Shown: in pieces, positions 5,383 to 32,325 of the stretch | How the letters are laid out: every line of letters begins with the position of its first letter | How positions within the stretch are numbered: position 1 is the first letter of the stretch | Source: Candidatus Treponema faecavium | GTDB taxonomy: Bacteria > Spirochaetota > Spirochaetia > Treponematales > Treponemataceae | NCBI GenBank assembly: GCA_019113455.1 | Contig: DXHG01000055.1 | Coordinates: 1 to 35,457 of the forward strand | Direction of reading: 5' to 3' | Length of the DNA: 35,457 bases | Notes under the pieces: generated by a model | The model's database searches: none | What the model saw: only the letters and a program-made list of their open reading frames with translations | Told to the model about the DNA's origin: nothing | Position numbers and translations under genes: made by a program

Positions 5383-6165
5383 ATGCAGTATGAACTCATA
5401 ACGGGTTTTCATGCCGTTGAGGAGCGGCTGCGCCGCATCGCGCGTTCTGCGGATACGGGCACGGCGCAGTCAGAACTCCTGTACACAGCGGGAGCGGGGC
5501 CGCGCGTAAAAAAGATAGCGGCAGCGGCCGCACGCGCCCGTATCCCCTGCAAAGAAACAACGCGGGCAGAACTTGACGCGCTTGTGTCGCGCCTTGAACC
5601 TGCGTGCCGAGATCACCGCGGGCTTGTGCTGCGCTGCGCGGCTTTGCAGACAGCAGAAACGCAGCTTGACGCGTATCTTTCTGCGCTCAGCCGTCCCGGC
5701 ACGGAAAAGCAGTGCGTCATCGTGCTTGATTCGATTACCGACCCGCACAACACCGGCGCGATACTGCGCAGCTGCGACCAGTTCGGCGTGTCGCTTGCGC
5801 TGCTGCCCGAACGGCGCGGAGCGCAGGCAGGCAGCGCCGCCGTGTCTCGCGCGAGCGCCGGAGCTGACTCATGGGTGCCGTTCTGCCGCACGGCAAACCT
5901 TGTGCGCGCCGTGCAGCAGCTCAAAGACGCAGGGTTCTGGGTATACGGCGCCGATGCTGACGGCGAGCCGCTGCCGAACGTGGAGTTCACACCGCGTTCC
6001 GTTATCGTCATGGGAAGCGAGGGAAACGGCATCGCCCCGCTCTTACGCAGACAGTGCGACTGTATCGTCTCCATTCCCACGTGCGGCAGGCTTGACAGTC
6101 TCAACGTGTCAGTCGCGGCAGGCATACTGCTTTATGCCTGCACGTCCGCACATGCACGACGCTGA
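5383..6165 (+). CDS. rlmB: TrmH/SpoU family RNA 2'-O-methyltransferase, RlmB-like
   Basis: Track ORF 5356-6165 begins with a GTG overlapping ychJ, so ATG 5383 is preferred. N-terminal substrate-binding region (ITGFHAVEE). SpoU motifs [53 protein letters not shown]. Confidence 0.82.
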
Positions 6166-14464: not shown

Positions 14465-14725
14465 GATTTGCCGCTGGCAAAATATTTGCCGTTTAAAAAT
14501 AAAAAATTTGCCGATTACGAATGAAAAATTTGCCGTCGGACAGCGGCGCACTTGCCGATTGCAAATTTTTTGTTTGCCGTCGGCAAATGAAATGTTTGCC
14601 GACGGCGAGTGTCTCACTGGCCGACGGCAAATTTCACTCCCGATAAACGGCAAATTTAAAATTAGCAATCGGCAAATTTTTTATTTGACATCGGGAAATT
14701 CTTTTAGTTTCCCGGCAGGAAACTT
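14465..14725. repeat. ~260-bp element densely packed with TTTGCCG / CGGCAAA motifs, copy 1
   Basis: TTTGCCG at 14467, 14485, 14507, 14529, (C)TTGCCG at 14551. Palindrome TTTGCCGTCGGCAAA at 14573-14587. TTTGCCGACGGCGA at 14595. GGCCGACGGCAAA ending at 14631. CGGCAAA at 14648 and 14670. CGGGAAA at 14692. TTTCCCGGCAGGAAA at 14708-14722. Forward motifs fill the left half and reverse motifs the right half. Confidence 0.85.
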
Positions 14726-14729
14726 TTCG

Positions 14730-15300
14730 CGGCGCTCTAAACTTGCGACTTTGTCCATGCAAGTTTAGGGCGCAATGCGCCCTAAACTTGGCAGCTTGCC
14801 GCTACGCGGCAAGCCTCAGTGCTGGAAAAGAGGGAGAGGGCTGGAGAGGGAGGAATACCCGCTTCTGAAGCAGATGTTTTTCTTCCTCTTCAGAAAAATA
14901 AATTATAGAGAATAAGAAAGAAACAAGCCGTGCATGCAACCGCAGAACCTCTCCACAGCGAACTGCAAAGAAAACAAGTCCGCGTGCGAAACGCAGCGAC
15001 TGGCACCCAGTGCTGGAAGAGAGGGTGTACGCTTACTGCTCGGACTAACGCTCTCGCAGTAAGCTGGCAGTTTTGAGGCAGAGCCTCAAAACTGCGTAAG
15101 CAGACCGTAGGTCTGCGACCAGGTGCCTCTCCCGCCCCAGAAAAACAAATTATAGAGAATAAAAAAGAAAAAACGCCCGCGTGCACACGCAAAAGCAAAA
15201 CCGCAGGGAACTGCAAAGAAAGCAGCTGCGCGTGCAAAACGCAGAAAAAACACCCCGCAGCGGGCTGCGAAACTGCCGCCGCACGTGCAGCGTGCAGAGT
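14730..15300. repeat. Two tandem forward copies of the mosaic repeat
   Basis: Hairpins 14735-14815. Copy 1: CAGTGCTGGAAAAGAGGGAG at 14816, AAATTATAGAGAATAAGAAAGAAA at 14898, CCGCGTGCGAAACGCAG near 14980. Copy 2: CAGTGCTGGAAGAGAGGG at 15008, hairpins CAGTTTTGAGGC/GCCTCAAAACTG and GCAGACC/GGTCTGC, AAATTATAGAGAATAAAAAAGAAA at 15147, CCGCGTGCACACGC and CTGCGCGTGCAAAACGCAG to about 15300. Confidence 0.8.
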
Positions 15301-23861: not shown

Positions 23862-24890
23862 TTACTGGCGCTTGCGCGTTACCGCTGCAAAAATGCTTTG
23901 CAGTACAATAAAGAAGCACAACAAAAGCGCAATACAAATGCGGACCCACCACGAAGAAAGTGTGCCTTGGAACGAGATAAATGTCTGGATAACGCCCGTT
24001 ATCAGCACACCGAAGAGACTTCCGATAACGTTGCCTACGCCGCCGGTAAGCAGCGTGCCGCCGATAACGGCAGAGGCGATAGCGTCCATCTCAAAACCGC
24101 GCGCCTGTTCGACAAAGCCGCCGCACGTATTGAGGCAGAACACGAATCCGCCGAGCGCGGCAAGAAAACCGTTGAGCACGTATACCTTAAACTTGACCAT
24201 GCGCACGTTCAGACCCATGAGCATGGCTGACTGTTCGTTGCCGCCGACAGCGTAAATGGAGCGGCCGAACTTGGTGTATTTGAGCATGACGTATACTGCG
24301 GCAAGCACAACGAGCGCAATAATGACGCTCGGATAAATATATGGGTCTACCATCATGCCGCGCCGGTTCACGTAGCCGCCGAACGGCAGCGTAATACGCG
24401 CCTGCGCCATCGCAAGGAACGTCTCGTTCGTAATGCTGATCATGTCGCGGCTGATAACGGCGGTAAGACCGCGCGCAAAGAACATGCCGGCAAGCGTTAC
24501 GATAAACGGCTGTATCTTTAAGAACGCCACCAAAAATCCCTGCACCACGCCGAACACGATGCCGAATAACAGTACGATCAGGATCGACGGAACTGCGCCC
24601 ATGCTCATGCGTTCCATCATGTAGGCAAGCATCATACATGTTACGCCGACCATTGAGCCGACGGATATGTCTATGCCGCCGGTTAAGAGCACGATTGTCA
24701 TGCCGACAGCGACAACAATAAGACCGGCGCTGCTGATAAACAGATTCAGGAACACCTGCGTGCGGCCGAAGTTCTTGTCCGCAAACACAATCATGCCGAT
24801 GATGTACATCACGAAAAAGAGCCCGATCGTAATCAAAAGCAGAAAGTTATTTGATAAAAACCTGTTCAGTTTTGCATTCTGTATTTTCAT
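23862..24890 (-). CDS. yjfF: Sugar ABC transporter permease, YjfF-like
   Basis: 342 aa, ~9-10 TM helices. BPD_transp_2 motif LTGGIDISVGSMVG. Last gene, in the same order as E. coli ytfQRT-yjfF. Confidence 0.85.
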   Translation of the reverse strand: MKIQNAKLNRFLSNNFLLLITIGLFFVMYIIGMIVFADKNFGRTQVFLNLFISSAGLIVVAVGMTIVLLTGGIDISVGSMVGVTCMMLAYMMERMSMGAVPSILIVLLFGIVFGVVQGFLVAFLKIQPFIVTLAGMFFARGLTAVISRDMISITNETFLAMAQARITLPFGGYVNRRGMMVDPYIYPSVIIALVVLAAVYVMLKYTKFGRSIYAVGGNEQSAMLMGLNVRMVKFKVYVLNGFLAALGGFVFCLNTCGGFVEQARGFEMDAIASAVIGGTLLTGGVGNVIGSLFGVLITGVIQTFISFQGTLSSWWVRICIALLLCFFIVLQSIFAAVTRKRQ

Positions 24891-25955
24891 TTATGCAGCC
24901 CTCCCTGCAGCGGCCTTGCGGGCGCGCAGACCGGCAAAGAATTTCTTGAGTTCCGGAGACTGAAGCGACACGATAATAACAACCACGATCGCTTTATAAA
25001 TCGGCAGCTGGTCAGCCGTAACGCCCATCGCATACAGAGAAGTCGTCAGCGCCTGAATCGTGATGGCGCCGATAACGCTTCCGGCAAGGGAGAACTTACC
25101 GCCGCCGAGCGAATTGCCGCCGAGCGCGACAGCAAGGATCGCGTCAAGCTCCATATTAAGGCCGGCGTTGTTCGCGTCTATTGAATACACGCGCGAGGTG
25201 ATAATCATACCGGCGATACCGGAACAAAGCCCGCAGAACGCATACGCAAGAAACACAATCTTTGTCGAGCTCAAACCCACAAGCCGCGACGCCGTCGGAT
25301 TGATGCCGACTGCCTGAATATACACGCCGAGCGCGGTGAATTTCAGCAGCGCCCACGTAAGCACTACAACGATAGCCGCCACGAGCACAGGCGTCGGCAC
25401 CGGAAGCCCGGGCACGAACGAACCGAGCAGGCGGTACTGTTCGTTTCGTACATACAGAATCAGACCGTCCGTAATCAGCTGCGCAATACCGCGGCCGGCG
25501 GTAAACAGAATCAGCGTTGCAACCATCGGCTGTATCTTCATTTTGGCTACGAGGAATCCGTTCCACGCGCCGCACAGCGTGCCGGTCAAGAGCGCGAGCA
25601 GAAAACCAACCGCGTACGGCACATTGTATGTATCTCCGGAACCAAGCGAAAAACACGCCACCGCGCCGGCAACTGCGCTTACCGCACCGACCGATATATC
25701 CGTACCGCCGGATGCGGCGACAACGAGCGTCATGCCGACAGCAAGGATAACGAGCTCGCTGCCGCGGTTAATAATATCGATGATATAGCCGTACAGCACG
25801 CCGTTCTGGATGCTGATATTAAAAAACGACGGCGTTTTAACGATGTTGAACAGCACGACCAAACACAAACACAGCAGCGGCAGGAACAGCTGATGACGGT
25901 ATATCTTTGACCAGCTGAATCCGCCTTTCGTCTTGAGTGCCTTAGTATCGCTCAT
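24891..25955 (-). CDS. ytfT: Sugar ABC transporter permease, YtfT-like
   Basis: 354 aa, multi-TM. Motif ASGGTDISVGAVSA. Its start overlaps the ATPase stop by 4 nt. Its stop abuts the yjfF start. Confidence 0.85.
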   Translation of the reverse strand: MSDTKALKTKGGFSWSKIYRHQLFLPLLCLCLVVLFNIVKTPSFFNISIQNGVLYGYIIDIINRGSELVILAVGMTLVVAASGGTDISVGAVSAVAGAVACFSLGSGDTYNVPYAVGFLLALLTGTLCGAWNGFLVAKMKIQPMVATLILFTAGRGIAQLITDGLILYVRNEQYRLLGSFVPGLPVPTPVLVAAIVVVLTWALLKFTALGVYIQAVGINPTASRLVGLSSTKIVFLAYAFCGLCSGIAGMIITSRVYSIDANNAGLNMELDAILAVALGGNSLGGGKFSLAGSVIGAITIQALTTSLYAMGVTADQLPIYKAIVVVIIVSLQSPELKKFFAGLRARKAAAGRAA

Positions 25956-27472
25956 TTATTTCCTCCGGCTATCGCCATCATGATTTCCGACTGCGTAAGA
26001 TGCAGCCCGTCAAGCTCGCCGACTTTCGCTCCGTCGCGCAGAACGCCGAGCCGCGATACGGTACGCAGCATTTCTTCGATTTCAGAAGAAATAAGCAGCA
26101 CCGACATGCCTTCTTTTGCAAACTTGACAACCAGTTTCAGGATTTCTGTCTTGGTGCCGACGTCTATACCGCGCGTCGGTTCGTCAAGGATAAGGAACTC
26201 AGGATGCGTCAGAAGCCAGCGGCCGATAATCACTTTCTGCTGATTGCCGCCGGACAGGTTTTTAATCGCCGTATCGCGGCTGGAAGTCTTTATCTGCAGA
26301 AGCTTGATATACTCGTCGGTAAACTTTTCCTGGTCTTTGCGGCTGATAAGCTTAAAGATGCCGCGCTTTGCCTGCAGTGCGATAATCAGATTCTCGCGCA
26401 CGGACAAATCGGCAAAAATGCCTTCTACCTTGCGCTCCTCAGGCAGGAATGCCATGCCGTTTTTCATCGCCACGATCGGCGCCGTTACGCGCACCTTGCG
26501 CCCGTTTACGCGGAGCGATCCCTTATCCGGCTTGTCCGCGCCGTAAATAGCGCGCGCAAGCTCCGATCTTCCCGAGCCGAGCAGCCCCGTAAGACCGACA
26601 ACCTCGCCTTTGTAAATGTCGATATCAAACGGCTTGATCGTGCCTGCGTGCGCAAGCCCGTGCGCGCTGATAACAGGTGTCTCTCCCTCATGCGAAACGG
26701 CCTCTTTGCCCTCTGTGCTTTTAATGTCTTCCCGGTCGTCAAAGTCCTTGCCGAGCATCTTTGCGACAAGCTGCACGCGCGGCAGTTTTTCCGTCTCATA
26801 CTCGCCGACAAGCGTGCCGTTCCGCAGCACGGTAATGCGGTCGCACACTTCGTACACCTGCTCAAGAAAGTGCGTAACAAAGATAATGCCTATGCCGCGC
26901 TTCTGCAGCATACGCATCATGCTGAACAGCTTCTGCACTTCCTGATCGTCAAGACTGGAAGTCGGCTCATCGAGAATCAATACTTTTGAAGATATATCTA
27001 CGGCGCGCGCAATCGCAACCATCTGCTGAATCGCGACCGAATAGTTTTCCAATTTTTTCGTAACATCAACCGGTATCTGCAAATCATCAAGCAGCTTCTG
27101 CGCGCGGCTGTTCATTTCTTTCCATGAAATAAAACCGGCCTTGCGCGGCTCCCGCCCGATATAAATATTTTCAGCAACAGACAGGTTCGGACACAGGTTT
27201 ACTTCCTGATATACGGTGCTGATGCCGTTTTTTTGTGATTCCTGCGGCGAATGATTTATAATCGGGTGGTCTATACCGGCAACGCGGATCTCTCCGGTTT
27301 CAAACTCATGCACGCCGGTCAGCACCTTTATCAGCGTAGATTTTCCCGCTCCGTTTTCGCCCATCAGCGCGTGGATTTCGCCAGCGCGGAGAGTAAAATC
27401 AACAGTATCAAGCGCTTTCACTCCGGGAAAGTTCTTTGATATGCCTTTCATCGTTAATACAATATCACCCAT
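25952..27472 (-). CDS. ytfR: Sugar ABC transporter ATP-binding protein with duplicated ATPase domains, YtfR-like
   Basis: ATG 27472 (MGDIVLTMKGISKNFPG) follows GGAGAAA. The track's 27553 start lacks an SD. Walker A GENGAGKST, signature LSVAIQQM, Walker B ILDEPTSSL. Second domain GLLGSGRSE, LSGGNQQK, LILDEPTRGID. Confidence 0.92.
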   Translation of the reverse strand: MGDIVLTMKGISKNFPGVKALDTVDFTLRAGEIHALMGENGAGKSTLIKVLTGVHEFETGEIRVAGIDHPIINHSPQESQKNGISTVYQEVNLCPNLSVAENIYIGREPRKAGFISWKEMNSRAQKLLDDLQIPVDVTKKLENYSVAIQQMVAIARAVDISSKVLILDEPTSSLDDQEVQKLFSMMRMLQKRGIGIIFVTHFLEQVYEVCDRITVLRNGTLVGEYETEKLPRVQLVAKMLGKDFDDREDIKSTEGKEAVSHEGETPVISAHGLAHAGTIKPFDIDIYKGEVVGLTGLLGSGRSELARAIYGADKPDKGSLRVNGRKVRVTAPIVAMKNGMAFLPEERKVEGIFADLSVRENLIIALQAKRGIFKLISRKDQEKFTDEYIKLLQIKTSSRDTAIKNLSGGNQQKVIIGRWLLTHPEFLILDEPTRGIDVGTKTEILKLVVKFAKEGMSVLLISSEIEEMLRTVSRLGVLRDGAKVGELDGLHLTQSEIMMAIAGGNK

Positions 27473-27566
27473 TTTCTCCACTTCTTTTTCCACTTCCATT
27501 CTAAAAAAACGGGCACAACCATCAGCGTCAAACAGGTTGTGCCCGTATACCAAGCGTTACAAAAAA

Positions 27567-28571
27567 TTAGTATGCGCGGTTAGGCAGTTCGGCAGCAGCG
27601 TTCTTGATGTCGAATACGCCTTCGTCAACATACTGCTTCTTTTCTACCGGTTCACCGGCTTCAAGCTTCTGAATGATTTCTGCTACACGCGGACCATGCA
27701 GCGGGTTGCATTCAACAGCGCAGTTGATTTCGCCGGCGATAATGCGTTCAAACGCAGCGCGCACCGCGTCAAACGTGATGATAATGATGTCTTCGCCGGG
27801 TTTCTTTCCGACAGCCTTGATAGCATCGATAGCACCAAAGCCCATGTTGTCGTTTTCAGCGATAACGATGTCGATATCGGGATATGCCTTGAGGAAAGAC
27901 TCCATGACTTCCTGACCCTTGCTCTGGGTGAACTCACCGGTCTGCATCGCGAGGATGTTGTAGCGCTCCGGCTTTTCGCCCATGAGGCGGGTAACGCCCT
28001 CGGTGCGGCCGACCTGCGCAGAAGCGCCGATTGTTCCCTGCAGGATAACAACGTTCATCAGCTCGTCGCCGCGGCCGATTTCTTCAAGATACGCGTCCAG
28101 CCATTTGACTGCGTCTTCACCTTCTTTTACGAAGTTGCCGCCGACCCAGCATACGTACAGAGACTCGTCAGTTACTTTAACTTCGCGGTCTGAAAGGATA
28201 ACCGGAATACCGGCAGCCTTGGCTTCAGAAAGAACAGTTTCCCAGCCGGTCTCAACAACAGGAGCCAATACGATATAGTCAACTTCCTGCTGAATAAAGT
28301 CGCGGATAGCGCGGATCTGGTTTTCCTGCTTCTGCTGCGCATCGTTGAAAATCAGCGTGTAGCCGTTTTCGGGAACAAATGTCGTCTGGAAAGACACCGT
28401 GTTGGCGGTGCGCCAATCCGATTCCGCACCGACCTGCGCGTAGCCGACAACAATCGTGTCATTGCCTGAATCAGCGGGAGCTGCCGCCGCACCTGAATCC
28501 TGACTGCCGCCGGCAAACGCAGCGCCGGCCATCAGAGCACAAGCCATCACACCTGCAACTAATTTTTTCAT
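27567..28571 (-). CDS. ytfQ: Periplasmic sugar-binding protein, YtfQ (galactofuranose-binding) family
   Basis: 334 aa with signal peptide. Strings shared with E. coli YtfQ as I remember it: QVGAESDWR, QQKQENQI, APVVETGWETVLSEAK, LQGTIGAS, GEFTQSKGQEVMESFLKA. Confidence 0.88.
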   Translation of the reverse strand: MKKLVAGVMACALMAGAAFAGGSQDSGAAAAPADSGNDTIVVGYAQVGAESDWRTANTVSFQTTFVPENGYTLIFNDAQQKQENQIRAIRDFIQQEVDYIVLAPVVETGWETVLSEAKAAGIPVILSDREVKVTDESLYVCWVGGNFVKEGEDAVKWLDAYLEEIGRGDELMNVVILQGTIGASAQVGRTEGVTRLMGEKPERYNILAMQTGEFTQSKGQEVMESFLKAYPDIDIVIAENDNMGFGAIDAIKAVGKKPGEDIIIITFDAVRAAFERIIAGEINCAVECNPLHGPRVAEIIQKLEAGEPVEKKQYVDEGVFDIKNAAAELPNRAY

Positions 28572-28638
28572 TGTACACTCCTTTTCTCGTACAAACGATA
28601 GATCCGGCAGACGGCGCCGTGCCGCCTGTCATACACTT

Positions 28639-28667
28639 ATAATACAACTGCCTTACTGTTTTGTCAA
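28639..28667 (-). promoter_or_regulatory. Sigma70-like promoter of the ytfQ operon
   Basis: Minus strand reads TTGACA (28667-28662), a 17-nt spacer, TATTAT (28644-28639), about 65 nt upstream of ATG 28571. Confidence 0.55.
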
Positions 28668-28770
28668 TAAAAAACAAAACAACTTTTCCAATAAAACAGC
28701 AAATAAGCAGTAAAATGTATTCTTAATAAAAACAATATTGGCGCAAATATAACAGCAACTGGTATTGCCT

Positions 28771-28970
28771 CACGCGCGTGCAGTCCTGTTTGCAGTTTCA
28801 CTGCGGGGGATGTTTGCGCTTGCACGCGGGCTTTTTTCTTCCTTATTCTCTGTACTATGCTTTTCCGGGGAGGGAGGAAACCCTTCCTCTCCTCCGGCAC
28901 TGCGGCTTGCCGCGGTTCAGTAAACGGCACGCTCCAGGCTGTTAAGTTTAGGGCAGAGCCCTAAACTTGT
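28771..28970. repeat. Mosaic repeat, inverted orientation (left flank of the low-GC cassette)
   Basis: TTGCAGTTTCACTGCGGGGGATGTTTGCGCTTGCACGCGGGC matches the 14.1-kb tandem unit. Followed by TTTTTTCTTCCTTATTCTCTGT, then GGGGAGGGAGGAAACCCTTCCTCTCCTCCGGCACTGCGG (28867-28905, the reverse complement of the CAGTGC(T/C)GGA box), and hairpin AAGTTTAGGGC/GCCCTAAACTT (28944-28968). Confidence 0.8.
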
Positions 28971-29071
28971 ATGAGTACAGCCGCATTTCGTTCACACAGC
29001 AAGCCTCTGTTCATACGCTGTTTGCTTATAAGAAAGTAAATGCTGATGCCCTAGTCTTAAAATGCGCAGCA

Positions 29072-29100
29072 TTGACATTTTTTTTTTTTTTGTCATATTG
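29072..29100 (+). promoter_or_regulatory. Promoter-like site TTGACA-T14-TGTCATATTG upstream of the cassette; homopolymeric spacer
   Basis: TTGACA at 29072-29077. Uninterrupted T14 at 29078-29091. Then GTC and ATATTG/TATTGT as -10 candidates at 17-18 nt spacing. TGACA/TGTCA also form an inverted repeat around the T tract. ATG 29139 is 40 nt downstream. Confidence 0.45.
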
Positions 29101-29138
29101 TGGCATTACCCAACAGCATATACATAGGGAGAAAAAAC

Positions 29139-29522
29139 ATGGGAATATATGAAAAAGCGGCGCTGAAAGCCGCGGCACAGTTACGGGAAAACAAAAACGC
29201 CAATCCTGAAACGATCTGGAAAAAAGCTGTCGCGGAATTTACCGACAGCGTGAATTCTATTTACAAGGGCTGTCCCAAAAATACCTTTCTCGGTCTGCTC
29301 TACGCCAAAAAGATACAGGGGTTGGAAAGCGTTTCAAATATACTGTTTGTATCTAAAGAACAAGAGTATGCACTTAAAGCATGCGAATTGCTTAAAGAGC
29401 ACCCGGAACATGCCGCGGAATCACGCGGAAAATTCTGGGACAGGATTTCGCATACGGCGCATCAGCAGCAGCTTGATGTAGTTTTTGCTTTCTATAACGC
29501 AGGTTTGCTGAATCTGCAGTAA
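29139..29522 (+). CDS. Small soluble hypothetical protein (127 aa), mostly helical by eye
   Basis: ATG 29139 follows GGGAGAAAAAAC (SD GGGAG at 29127-29131). The track start 29100 is upstream. No TM and no signal peptide. Contains KGCPKNTFLGLLY. GC clearly lower than the neighbours. Confidence 0.7.
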   Translation: MGIYEKAALKAAAQLRENKNANPETIWKKAVAEFTDSVNSIYKGCPKNTFLGLLYAKKIQGLESVSNILFVSKEQEYALKACELLKEHPEHAAESRGKFWDRISHTAHQQQLDVVFAFYNAGLLNLQ

Positions 29523-29547
29523 CCCATAGCAGAACAGGAGCGTATAT

Positions 29548-29964
29548 ATGCTGACAGACGAAGAATGGAAAGAAATCAAAGAAAACAGGGAACGGGATCG
29601 CAAAAAAGACGAAGACCGGCAAAAATACGGCACGCATAAAAAGCACGGAAATTACAATGCGTATGTAAATCCGTGGTGGTATGTACTGCTTGGTCTGCAG
29701 CTTATCTCATTTGTGTATTCACTTTTTGTGCAGCACTATATTTCTATAGCAAACATATACTATATTGTACTTATCATTATGCGTATCAGCGGAAAAATAA
29801 CGACTGTCTATTTTTGGCCCTGGTATCTGGTCGGCGGATTTGCAATAGGTATAATAGAATATCGGGTTTTTATTCTGCCGCAAATTAACGCCAGTGTTGA
29901 CGCCTACATGTCAAATCTTTTTTCAATTTTGTTTGTGCTCGGTCTTGTCAACAGCTGTTCATGA
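29548..29964 (+). CDS. Small membrane protein (138 aa): charged N-terminus plus ~4 TM helices
   Basis: ATG 29548 follows AGGAG (29534-29538), 25 nt after the upstream stop. KE/R-rich N-terminus MLTDEEWKEIKENRERDRKKDEDRQKYGTHKKH. Hydrophobic helices WWYVLLGLQLISFVYSLFV, IYYIVLIIMRI, FWPWYLVGGFAIGII, LFSILFVLGLV. Sample lines give about 30-45% GC. Confidence 0.7.
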   Translation: MLTDEEWKEIKENRERDRKKDEDRQKYGTHKKHGNYNAYVNPWWYVLLGLQLISFVYSLFVQHYISIANIYYIVLIIMRISGKITTVYFWPWYLVGGFAIGIIEYRVFILPQINASVDAYMSNLFSILFVLGLVNSCS

Positions 29965-30004
29965 TACGCGTTCGCAGTACACTCGCAGCTTCACGGCATG
30001 TGCG

Positions 30005-30090
30005 GACAAACCGCAGTGCTGGAAGAGAGGGGTTCCTCCCGCTCCAAAACTCGTGCGTGCTTGTTTTTTGCTGCAAAAAACGATACTGTA
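30005..30090. repeat. Truncated mosaic repeat, forward orientation (right flank of the cassette)
   Basis: CCGCAGTGCTGGAAGAGAGGGGTTCCTCCC (30011-30040) is the inverted partner of 28867-28905. Followed by CGTGCGTGCTTG and the AT palindrome TTTTTTGC-T-GCAAAAAA (30064-30080). Confidence 0.7.
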
Positions 30091-30094
30091 GCGT

Positions 30095-30778
30095 ATGCCG
30101 ATATCCGCTGATTTTCCGTTTCAGGAGTATCTGCCGTTCTGGGACGCGCTGCCGCGCGAACTGCAGACAGAGCTCCGCGCAGCAGCGCAGCTCAGGCATG
30201 CGCATACAGACCAGGTCATACATACCGGCGGCCGCTGCGACGGCTTTTTTATCATCGTCAGCGGCAGGCTCCGCTGCCGCACCGCGGCAGAAAGCGGGCG
30301 CAGCATAACGCTTTTCAGGCTCTTTGCGCACGACGTGTGCCTGTTTTCCGCATCATGCATTTTAAAAAGCATCTCGTTCACCGTAACGATTGAAGCCGAA
30401 TGTGATACAGACTATCTGCGCATCCCGCCCGCCGTGTACCGGCGCGTCAGCGCCGCTTCTGCTCAGGCGGCGCAGTTTACCAACGAAATACTTGCTTCGC
30501 GCTTCTCCGACGTAATGTGGCTCATGGATCAGCTTTTGAATCGGCGTATGGACGCGCGCATCGCGGGTTTTCTTATAGAAGAGGCGCGCCTGTGCGGCAG
30601 CGATACGCTGCACATCACGCACGAAAAAATTGCGCAGCATTTGGGAAGCGCGCGCGAAGTCGTTACGCGCGTACTCAACTACCTCGCGCACGAAGGCATG
30701 ATCACGCTTTTCCGCGGCGGCATTGCGATTGCCGACAGCGCACGGCTGTCAGAGCTCGCAGAAGACGCCGTTCCGTAA
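30095..30778 (+). CDS. Crp/Fnr family transcriptional regulator
   Basis: 227 aa. N-terminal cNMP-binding-like beta-roll (FFIIVSGRLRC). C-terminal HTH ITHEKIAQHLGSAREVVTRVLNYLAHEGMI. No SD upstream of the ATG. Confidence 0.85.
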   Translation: MPISADFPFQEYLPFWDALPRELQTELRAAAQLRHAHTDQVIHTGGRCDGFFIIVSGRLRCRTAAESGRSITLFRLFAHDVCLFSASCILKSISFTVTIEAECDTDYLRIPPAVYRRVSAASAQAAQFTNEILASRFSDVMWLMDQLLNRRMDARIAGFLIEEARLCGSDTLHITHEKIAQHLGSAREVVTRVLNYLAHEGMITLFRGGIAIADSARLSELAEDAVP

Positions 30779-30852
30779 CTCTGTCACAGACGGCAGCGCT
30801 CCCGTTTGCTATATTTGTTCCATAATACAGCAACACAAACGGAGGTACATAC

Positions 30853-31161
30853 ATGATAACTGAAGTTGCCAGCAATACGTTTAAGACCGAAGTGCTCGAC
30901 GCCGCGTCTCCGGTGCTCGTTGATTTCTGGGCGCCGTGGTGCGGGCCCTGCCGCATGTTTTCTCCGATAATCGAGGAATTCGCACAGGAACAGGGCGCAA
31001 ACGTTAAAGTAGCGAAAGTCAATATCGATAACGCGCCTGACCTTGCGCAGCAGTACGGCGTTATGGGCGTACCGACAGTCGTGCTCTTTAAAAACGGCCA
31101 GCCGGTGCAGCGAGCTGTAGGCGTGCAGCCCAAAGAAGCCCTGCGCGCCATGGTGCAGTAG
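30853..31161 (+). CDS. trxA: Thioredoxin
   Basis: 102 aa. Active site WAPWCGPC, GVMGVPTVVLFKNG. SD GGAGG is 7 nt upstream. Confidence 0.95.
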   Translation: MITEVASNTFKTEVLDAASPVLVDFWAPWCGPCRMFSPIIEEFAQEQGANVKVAKVNIDNAPDLAQQYGVMGVPTVVLFKNGQPVQRAVGVQPKEALRAMVQ

Positions 31162-31175
31162 ACCGAACTGAACAC

Positions 31176-31203
31176 AAAAAACTCCCCGCACGGGGAGTTT
31201 TTT
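31176..31203. terminator. Bidirectional intrinsic terminator between convergent trxA and the hdeD-like gene
   Basis: AAAAAA-CTCCCCG-CA-CGGGGAG-TTTTTT: a GC-rich stem flanked by an A6 run and a T6 run. Confidence 0.8.
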
Positions 31204-31232
31204 ATATGAACAGGCGTTCCGGCTGCACGGCG

Positions 31233-31790
31233 CTACTCGTCTGCGTCGGAGACCGAATCCGGCTCAATGACGAGCGGGCGGTTCCGCCATTCCCACACGA
31301 CAAAGCCCGCGCCGAACACGATGAGCAGCGCGCCCAATACGCGCACGAGCATAATGCCGATGGAGGCGGGCATCGCAAACAGAATCGCCGCCAGTATTAT
31401 CGAAAGCGCAATCTCGCCCCAGTAGTATGTTGTGCCGTACCCCGCCTGACGTATTTTTGCCGTCAGGTATATCTCGGCAAGCGCCGCCAGAAGCAGATAC
31501 GCGCCGAGCAGGTACAGCATGACCGTCCACACTGCGCCGGCAAGCGCAAGCGGCAGCGCAACAGCAGCAATGCCCACCGCGATGCTGGCAATACCGCGCA
31601 CGAGCGCCACGCGGCTGAAATATGAGTCGTCAAGCAGCCTGCGCACATACACGACATTGTACAGGCCGTTGATGACAGCAGCGATGCCGAGCACGATAAC
31701 GGACACCCTGATACAGGCTTCGGGCGCGAAAATCATTAAAAGTCCGATGACCGCAGACAGGATGCCGGTACTGATATACGCTTTTCTCAC
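31233..31790 (-). CDS. HdeD/DUF308 family membrane protein
   Basis: 185 aa. GTG 31790 follows GGAGGA. Six TM helices in repeated pairs with the pattern GILSAVIGLLMIFAP..VLGIAAVINGL typical of DUF308. Confidence 0.78.
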   Translation of the reverse strand: MRKAYISTGILSAVIGLLMIFAPEACIRVSVIVLGIAAVINGLYNVVYVRRLLDDSYFSRVALVRGIASIAVGIAAVALPLALAGAVWTVMLYLLGAYLLLAALAEIYLTAKIRQAGYGTTYYWGEIALSIILAAILFAMPASIGIMLVRVLGALLIVFGAGFVVWEWRNRPLVIEPDSVSDADE

Positions 31791-32059: not shown

Positions 32060-32325
32060 ATCCCGGCATCAGATTTCCCATTTAAAAAATAAAAATTTGG
32101 CGATGGCAAAATTTTATTTTGCCATTTATCCTGAGTGAATTTTGCCGATGGCCAGCGAGACACTTGCCGTCGGCAAACGTTTCATTTGCCGACGGCAAAC
32201 AAAAAATTTGCAATCGGCAAGTGCGCCGCTGGCCGACGGCAAATTTTTTACCGGATAAACGGCAAATGTAAATTTTGCCATCGGGAATTTTTTTGCCGTC
32301 GGCAAATCTCTTGCCGCAGTACGCA
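32060..32325. repeat. TTTGCCG/CGGCAAA-dense element, copy 2, inverted relative to 14465-14725
   Basis: By hand alignment, the reverse complement of 14529-14700 matches about 32085-32250 block for block: GAGACAC-TTGCCGTCGGCAAAC-TTTCA-TTTGCCGACGGCAAACAAAAAATTTGCAATCGGCAAGTGCGCCGCTG-CCGACGGCAAATTT. The central ~110 bp is nearly identical; identity is lower in the arms. Confidence 0.85.

Follow-up and report, generated by a model that had tools for sequence, protein, structure and literature searches.

A horizontally acquired, strain-variable islet encoding a DUF6979 protein in Candidatus Treponema faecavium

Phage morons are accessory genes which carry their own promoter, as exemplified by the bor gene of phage lambda, located downstream of Rz. 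Here we analyse a small segment of spirochaete DNA which resembles them in part. It occupies 1.32 kb (28739..30059, no strand assigned) of contig DXHG01000055.1 from Candidatus Treponema faecavium (assembly GCA_019113455.1), whose positions 1 to 35,457 constitute the window of this study. The segment, called the islet in the following, encodes a soluble protein of the DUF6979 family (open reading frame A, ORF A) and a small membrane protein (ORF B); in most conspecific contigs, a gene for an exported protein, S, precedes both. Like a moron, the islet is small, compositionally distinct and equipped with a putative promoter of its own, and enterobacterial DUF6979 genes are found in the post-Rz slot. 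In contrast to a moron, the window copy has neither a surrounding prophage nor a clear intrinsic terminator, and we do not class it as one.

Three other groups of described elements are close to this locus. With the DUF6979/PHROG 5039 proteins of E. coli, Salmonella and Dickeya prophages, A shares a K-x-C-P...L signature, a length of 125-135 residues and a predicted all-helical fold. However, A resides in a 1.3-kb spirochaete islet with no prophage and no defence island that could be recognised around it, stands beside an unrelated membrane protein, and is only 25-41% identical to non-spirochaete members. The mosaic repeats which flank the islet recall repetitive extragenic palindromes and bacterial interspersed mosaic elements (REP/BIME) as well as miniature inverted-repeat transposable elements (MITEs): they are short, hairpin-forming and modular, and are found, in either orientation, in a number of the longer intergenic regions. 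Unlike these elements, they belong to no Rfam family, have no transposase within 5 kb and vary in module order; inspection by eye, in place of a formal search, also revealed no obvious target duplications. Lastly, bacteriocin/immunity, abortive-infection (Abi) and toxin-antitoxin modules share with the islet the succession of a small soluble or exported protein and a small polytopic membrane protein. The islet differs from them in that its proteins have no homology to the known families, the A-B arrangement is not conserved and the S-B arrangement is conserved in part.

The evidence presented below supports the view that the segment is a horizontally acquired, strain-variable accessory islet. 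Its genes S, A and B assort independently. As judged from its sequence, A belongs to DUF6979, an uncharacterised family, of which it is a new member from a spirochaete. The islet is probably an accretion of independent accessory genes and not a functional A-B pair.

The islet and the empty site of a sister species

The islet lies on the spirochaete chromosome between the promoter of the ytfQ sugar-transporter gene and a crp-like/thioredoxin (trx) gene pair. Conspecific metagenome contigs, 97-99% identical to the window at the nucleotide level, share the order ytfQ, cassette, crp, trx, and in most of these strains the islet is longer (~1.9 kb). The closest other species found is represented by an uncultured spirochaete genome bin, whose locus L009 is the sole outgroup available. 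Its YtfQ and ABC ATPase are 95.6% and 95% identical to the window proteins, and when a genome collection was scanned with the Crp-like protein, the top match (59% identical) was again in L009; the species of the window was not among the matches. Homology between the two loci stops at window position 28738 and picks up again at 30060. In L009, ytfQ is separated from the crp-like start by 250 bp which contain neither S, A and B nor the repeats. The initial annotation of this DNA had called for such a comparison and asked whether an empty site would retain one fused repeat; both the cassette and the repeats are absent from L009.

The right edge of the islet is followed by native DNA. The stretch 5′ of crp (30060..30094, + strand) aligns to positions 7965-8000 of L009, and the alignment of these last 35 nucleotides was equalled by only one of 300 shuffles. 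This stretch also harbors an AT-rich palindrome, GTTTTTTGC-T-GCAAAAAAC, at 30063-30081, 14 nucleotides 5′ of the crp-like start codon. The palindrome is partly kept in L009 and may be an operator or promoter element.

The base composition of the islet is foreign to its surroundings. Positions 28739 to 30094 have a GC content of 44.8%, and the window as a whole has one of 54.3%. A formal scan, which had been proposed as a check, places both genes below the 26 window ORFs of at least 150 residues (mean GC 55.7%, standard deviation 3.2; mean GC at third codon positions, GC3, 62.9%, standard deviation 5.2): ORF A has a GC content of 44.8% and a GC3 of 47.7%, ORF B of 39.3% and 42.4%. The drop amounts to 3 to 5 standard deviations and is the minimum of the window, and the GC3 values are 15-20 points under those of the host genes. 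A drop in GC had been noticed from the start and is real, but the 60-67% then given for the flanking genes was too high, since ytfQ has 53.8% and the crp-like gene 58.5%.

No recombinase is found within at least 5 kb on each side, which agrees with the initial annotation, and no phage genes occur within 5 kb on either side; both statements derive from Pfam matches on the identical genes of the conspecific contig L001. An islet is expected to be atypical in composition, to be missing from the corresponding site of a relative and to vary between strains; all three properties are found here, and the early proposal of a horizontally acquired accessory module is upheld by each of them. The empty site of L009, together with the GC3 deficit, supports an insertion in the lineage of the window.

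ORF A and the DUF6979 family

ORF A (29139..29522, + strand) encodes a protein of 127 residues, predicted to be soluble and all-helical and containing no hydrophobic segment. A Shine-Dalgarno sequence, GGGAG, is located at 29127-29131, 7 nucleotides 5′ of the ATG. This start at 29139 is favoured over a GTG at 29100; in the family alignment, members open with M-G/S/N-x-Y. Neither protein of the cassette had been recognised when the sequence was first read. For A this no longer holds: the Pfam model DUF6979 (PF22399) is matched with E = 4.2e-28 and 98.5 bits, against a cut-off of 27, and residues 1-124 of the 127 cover profile positions 1-126 of 127. A second match, with E = 4.3e-17, is to PHROG 5039 (phrog_5039), which is annotated as function unknown. 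For B the statement stands, as no family was found in PADLOC, in PHROGs or, above the curated thresholds, in Pfam or NCBIfam. The PADLOC search recommended for both proteins gave no match for either at E <= 1, and PADLOC has no DUF6979 model. Across the NCBIfam, PHROG and PADLOC scans, DUF6979 and phrog_5039 were the sole matches, both of them to A.

A profile search retrieved 43 DUF6979 members of 78-138 residues, all of them single-domain proteins without fusions. In an alignment of 37 members K43, C45, P46 and L53 are invariant, and W27, F50, D113 and V115 are at least 90% conserved; A thus has the residues typical of the family, in K-x-C-P, at the Leu further on and in the Q-x-D-V-V region. 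The AlphaFold2 model of A, computed from the family alignment, consists of eight helices and is confident (pLDDT 94.5, pTM 0.90). A fold search with this model gave, at best, E = 2.8 and a TM score of 0.28 in the PDB, and E = 0.79 in BFVD. Sequence searches of the PDB with A (as the family profile), B and S returned nothing under E = 0.1. Furthermore, a literature search found no mention of DUF6979 or PF22399.

The genomic settings of the family point towards phages and defence. In the lambdoid phages 4A7 and SfI, the gene directly follows Rz. A viral scan with an 11-sequence subset of the DUF6979 alignment yielded prophage contigs from IMG/VR. In two of them (L108 and L109) the gene is located just 5′ of a putative endolysin ORF followed by small holin-like ORFs, according to our reading of these unannotated contigs; in two others (L110 and L111) it lies just 5′ of a long ORF, a candidate tape-measure protein. 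Among complete E. coli genomes, 248 of 5426 (~5%) encode DUF6979, always as one chromosomal copy, and A has no plasmid match. In metagenome contigs, members have four defence-like settings, among genes for restriction-modification, Pbe or candidate defence functions: flanked by PDC-S11 (DUF4268) and a type I methyltransferase, with Mrr alongside; directly 5′ of PDC-S14; beside PbeA/PbeC, PDC-M57B and HepT/MNT; and between HATPase_c_3 and Schlafen AlbA_2 proteins. A lone DUF6979 gene, 54% identical to A, is found between era and murJ in L005, a contig of a related spirochaete with a match to the Treponema-family Pfam entry TP_0700. Its GC content is 40.5%, compared with 53-60% for its neighbours.

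As these phage- and defence-like contexts are consistent, A may be a stand-alone gene of phage-host conflict. It could act as a single actor in the cytoplasm, in defence, exclusion or counter-defence, with the invariant Lys-x-Cys-Pro motif as the probable functional site. The family moves singly between genomes and is found by the lysis cassettes of enterobacterial prophages and in defence islands. More tentatively, DUF6979 might constitute a new self-sufficient phage-conflict family whose fold differs from all solved structures, a one-gene moron ranging from enterobacterial prophages to gut spirochaetes, which here landed in an S-B module whose promoter has a poly-T spacer of variable length; we regard this extended scenario as conceivable, with the balance of probability tilted against it. 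DUF6979 is nevertheless a candidate worth testing: the protein is small, its model is confident, no structural relative is known and about 5% of complete E. coli genomes carry it. The E. coli homologues make such a test cheap.

Within the species, A varies by 5-7% of its nucleotides in clustered mosaic patches, with at least six alleles and a dN/dS of 0.36. The differences concentrate at residues 62-75 (window 29322-29363), a surface loop which reads ESVSNILFVSKE in one form and ENVLQTPFESKE in another. Variants of this loop recombine among the six or more alleles while the neighbouring genes stay near-identical, a pattern suggestive of gene conversion or of diversifying selection.

Independent assortment of S, A and B

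ORF B (29548..29964, + strand) encodes 138 residues and is separated from A by a gap of 25 nucleotides. Its Shine-Dalgarno sequence, AGGAG at 29536-29540, is again placed 7 nucleotides 5′ of the ATG, and the two tightly spaced reading frames with good ribosome-binding sites were thus correctly described from the outset. So was the layout of B, a charged N-terminus (40 residues, with 11 K/R and 10 D/E), predicted to be helical, followed by four predicted membrane helices; hydropathy places the hydrophobic spans at about residues 44-62, 64-82, 87-111 and 117-138. The protein is lineage-restricted. Among 1.84 billion representative proteins, three relatives were found at E < 1e-3, one spurious match aside: the cluster of B itself, P0005, with 36% identity, and P0006, a fragment. 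The model of B (pLDDT 67, pTM 0.28) was computed from a 4-sequence alignment and is too poor for a fold search. Among the alleles of B (P0061-P0063), one, present on three contigs of which one measures 318 kb, is truncated at residue 111 and lacks the fourth membrane helix, and other alleles differ by 1-3 residues.

In most conspecific contigs, 569 additional base pairs between the promoter and A encode S, a protein of 170 residues with a signal peptide. The window represents the S-less haplotype. Its junction, at 29112..29118 (+ strand), was located by the break of the blastn alignment to positions 5410 and 5980 of L001. The S-less form with the exact A allele of the window was found in seven contigs, and three of the four examined show the same site. 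Since the form recurs at the same site in separate sequencing runs, it is a real haplotype. A simple deletion of S between CATATTG direct repeats was considered as its origin and rejected: neither of the products predicted for such an event agrees with the junction of the window, GCATTACCCAACAGCAT. The distinct A allele of the S-less haplotype also speaks against such a deletion.

The expression signals of the islet have been examined as well. A predicted sigma-70-like promoter is located at 29072..29099 (+ strand), 40 nucleotides 5′ of A. It comprises TTGACA, a 16-nucleotide spacer which includes a T14 tract (29078-29091), and TG-n-CATATT; in the promoter scan it matched at 10 of 12 positions and, in addition, had the TG. 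No canonical or otherwise clear intrinsic terminator follows B, where only the hairpins of the repeat region are present. The same promoter sits ahead of S in the contigs which contain this gene, and so the genes probably form an operon under one promoter, S-A-B in most strains and A-B in the window strain. We infer co-transcription of A and B. The T tract in the spacer measures 14, 15 or 16 nucleotides among contigs. It is T14 in the window, L001, L002, L006 and L007 and T15 in L103-L106, where it constitutes the sole difference from the window across 5.9 kb of L103 (the T15 contigs are otherwise 99.98% identical). L003 and L004 combine T15 with TTGACT. This variation could reflect either a phase-variable promoter or homopolymer assembly error.

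Beyond the species, the three genes part company. In the more distant relative L008, a homologue of S (50% identity) is followed after 39 nucleotides by P0005, the one relative of B whose contig context was examined, with no DUF6979 gene between them. The relatives L101 and L102, which are low in GC, lack both A and B; there, S is the first gene of an operon that also encodes a lipoprotein, a small ORF of variable identity and a small membrane protein with four helices, unrelated to B. The terminal four-helix proteins were tested as possible homologues of B and discarded, the profile-profile probability being 1.9%. A and B have been found together only in the present species, where they co-occur in every conspecific contig. 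No homologue of B was detected at other DUF6979 loci (L005 and about 15 other distinct loci examined), and a small polytopic membrane neighbour was present at none of the nine loci with scored neighbours. These comparisons show that S, A and B assort independently.

Flanking repeats, rival explanations and neighbouring DNA

Both ends of the islet carry mosaic repeats. The left copy (28771..28972, no strand assigned) is a complete composite of three modules: M1 at about 28792-28863 (core TGCGCTTGCACGCGGG), M2 in reverse orientation at 28867-28914 and the M3 hairpin at 28930-28972. It was delineated from the repeat families D3, D4, D6 and D10 and the inverted pairs I14, I19 and I24. The composite is collinear with the reverse complement of 14744-14960, in line with the reverse-orientation repeat reported previously for this flank, and its minus-strand RNA folds with z = -5.0 relative to shuffled sequence. 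The right arm (30007..30045, no strand assigned), identified through pairs I1 and I6, family D13 and a box search, is a partial M2 copy, inverted with respect to the left one and possibly extended by a degenerate M1 tail. The two pairs of inverted arms, 28886-28909 with 30007-30030 (24 nucleotides, 88%) and 28867-28884 with 30028-30045 (18 nucleotides, 83%), are separated by a small indel. The inverted arms which had been described around the cassette are thus real, but the right one is just a 39-nucleotide fragment against a left copy of ~200 nucleotides. Relative to L009, the repeats lie 32-53 nucleotides inside the left end of the indel and 14 nucleotides inside its right end.

The modules are enriched in the window: the box CAGTGCTGGAAGAGAGGG occurs four times (none expected), the M1 core eight times (1.7 expected) and the M3 hairpin twice under strict matching (none expected). 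Rfam identified two tRNAs only, and the repeats match no known RNA family. A similar layout of arms around the TTTGCCG element at 14 kb had also been pointed out. Inverted M1 modules do flank the TTTGCCG arrays there, and at 32 kb as well; M2 and M3 modules were seen beside the arrays at the 14-kb locus alone.

Several readings of the locus compete. The initial annotation noted that A and B have the layout of many toxin/immunity, abortive-infection or membrane-effector pairs; in such a system, the soluble A would sense or neutralise and the membrane-bound B would kill or protect. The close spacing of two co-oriented genes which no terminator separates, each behind its own Shine-Dalgarno sequence, is what one would expect of such a pair, as are their joint presence throughout the species and the link of DUF6979 to defence islands. 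Yet A and B are paired in a single species: L005 has a lone DUF6979 gene, an S-B arrangement without A exists in L008, the other DUF6979 loci examined offer no homologue of B, and the nine with scored neighbours have no small polytopic one. In addition, PADLOC matches are lacking, contigs with polymorphic A have a B that is 100% identical and flanks that differ by 0.3-1.3%, which argues against co-evolution, and the truncated 111-residue B coexists with an intact A. The lone A, the S-B locus without A, the contrast between polymorphic A and invariant B, and the truncated B argue against an obligate A-B pair, and we consider a joint system quite improbable. Alternatively, S and B could form a bacteriocin-like module of exported toxin and membrane immunity protein into which DUF6979 was inserted; with the loss of S, the window strain would have been left with B as an orphaned immunity gene. 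This would agree with the signal peptide of S, with the small size, four predicted membrane helices and downstream position of B, which in L008 directly follows S, with the different four-helix membrane protein that ends the S operons of L101 and L102, and with the recurrence in several samples of a haplotype that retains B and lacks S. However, neither S nor B matches a known family of toxins or immunity proteins, no homology was detected between B and the terminal proteins of L101 and L102, nothing points to toxicity, and the layout by itself is weak evidence. We hold this module to be unlikely. A third possibility, that A and B are native core genes of odd composition and that no insertion occurred, would account for the identical site in all conspecific contigs; given the empty site in L009, the GC3 deficit and the patchy distribution of both families, it is very improbable.

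A further reading concerns the mode of entry. The cassette could be the cargo of a non-autonomous mobile element bounded by the mosaic copies as terminal inverted repeats and mobilised by a recombinase in trans. The inverted arms lie close to both breakpoints of the indel, inverted M1 modules recur at the two TTTGCCG arrays, and L105, a 1.7-kb Logan contig, links the cassette from within M1 to a different upstream gene. Against this, the arms are very unequal and merely 83-88% alike, no target-site duplication is obvious by eye (a formal search was not run), a recombinase is missing within 5 kb and the window contains no second copy of A or B. L105 is a short-read contig which breaks inside a repeat and may be chimeric, and the repeats may have spread into the new intergenic DNA once the insertion had occurred. 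A mobile element of this kind seems doubtful, and we do not think that the repeats are the ends of an active transposon. They are copies of the hairpin-rich intergenic repeat of the host and mark a recombination-prone site. We prefer an accreted islet of independently assorting genes to the tempting label of a toxin/immunity cassette. Within it, B would be a small inner-membrane protein whose only conserved neighbour is the exported S. On weaker grounds, it may cooperate with S or counteract it, possible roles being those of a membrane anchor or of an immunity protein, and would then be an orphan in the window strain; we infer both this S-B link and the phage-conflict role of A. Several points weigh against this interpretation. 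The outgroup is a single locus, and a loss in L009 is excluded through composition alone. The position of the repeats, within 14-50 nucleotides of both breakpoints, fits what a repeat-mediated insertion would produce. Of four S loci in other organisms, two (L101 and L102) are devoid of B, and S-B is accordingly not an obligate pair. The defence-like neighbours of DUF6979 come from only four or five contexts and represent guilt by association without a formal enrichment test. Moreover, no experiment or annotation, PADLOC with its missing model included, assigns a function to the family.

Other observations were made on the repeats and on the surrounding DNA. In L105, the cassette of A and B, together with the greater part of the left repeat, is joined within M1 (window 28801) to another upstream region (positions 1-800), which contains a DUF6672 gene; the junction stems either from a rearrangement through the repeats or from chimeric assembly. 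The palindrome TTTGCCGNCGGCAAA, spaced by 22 bp, forms arrays at 14467-14704 and 32073-32307. The two arrays are mutually inverted (176 nucleotides, 87%), have mosaic repeat modules alongside and are absent at L009. In appearance they resemble iterons or arrays of operators. As for the mosaic repeats at the ends of the indel, they may inform how small islets enter these spirochaete genomes.

Divergence from the sister species is uneven across the islet site, and the two species are separated by a strong shift in GC content. Overall GC content is 54% here, against 44% in L009. Across window positions 23865-31789, YtfQ and the ABC ATPase share 95% of their residues with the L009 proteins at 78% DNA identity, while the Crp-like protein, thioredoxin and DUF308 are just 59-70% identical. 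The crp-like/thioredoxin pair (30095-31161) is also found as neighbours in many Clostridia genomes, at ~50% identity, which nearly matches the 59% of the spirochaete sister and hints at exchange between gut Firmicutes and spirochaetes. Lastly, the DUF308 gene (31233-31790) is 93.4% identical to L001 and 99.5% identical to L006, whereas the genes to either side have identities of 98.7% or more with L001; it looks like a local recombination patch between strains.

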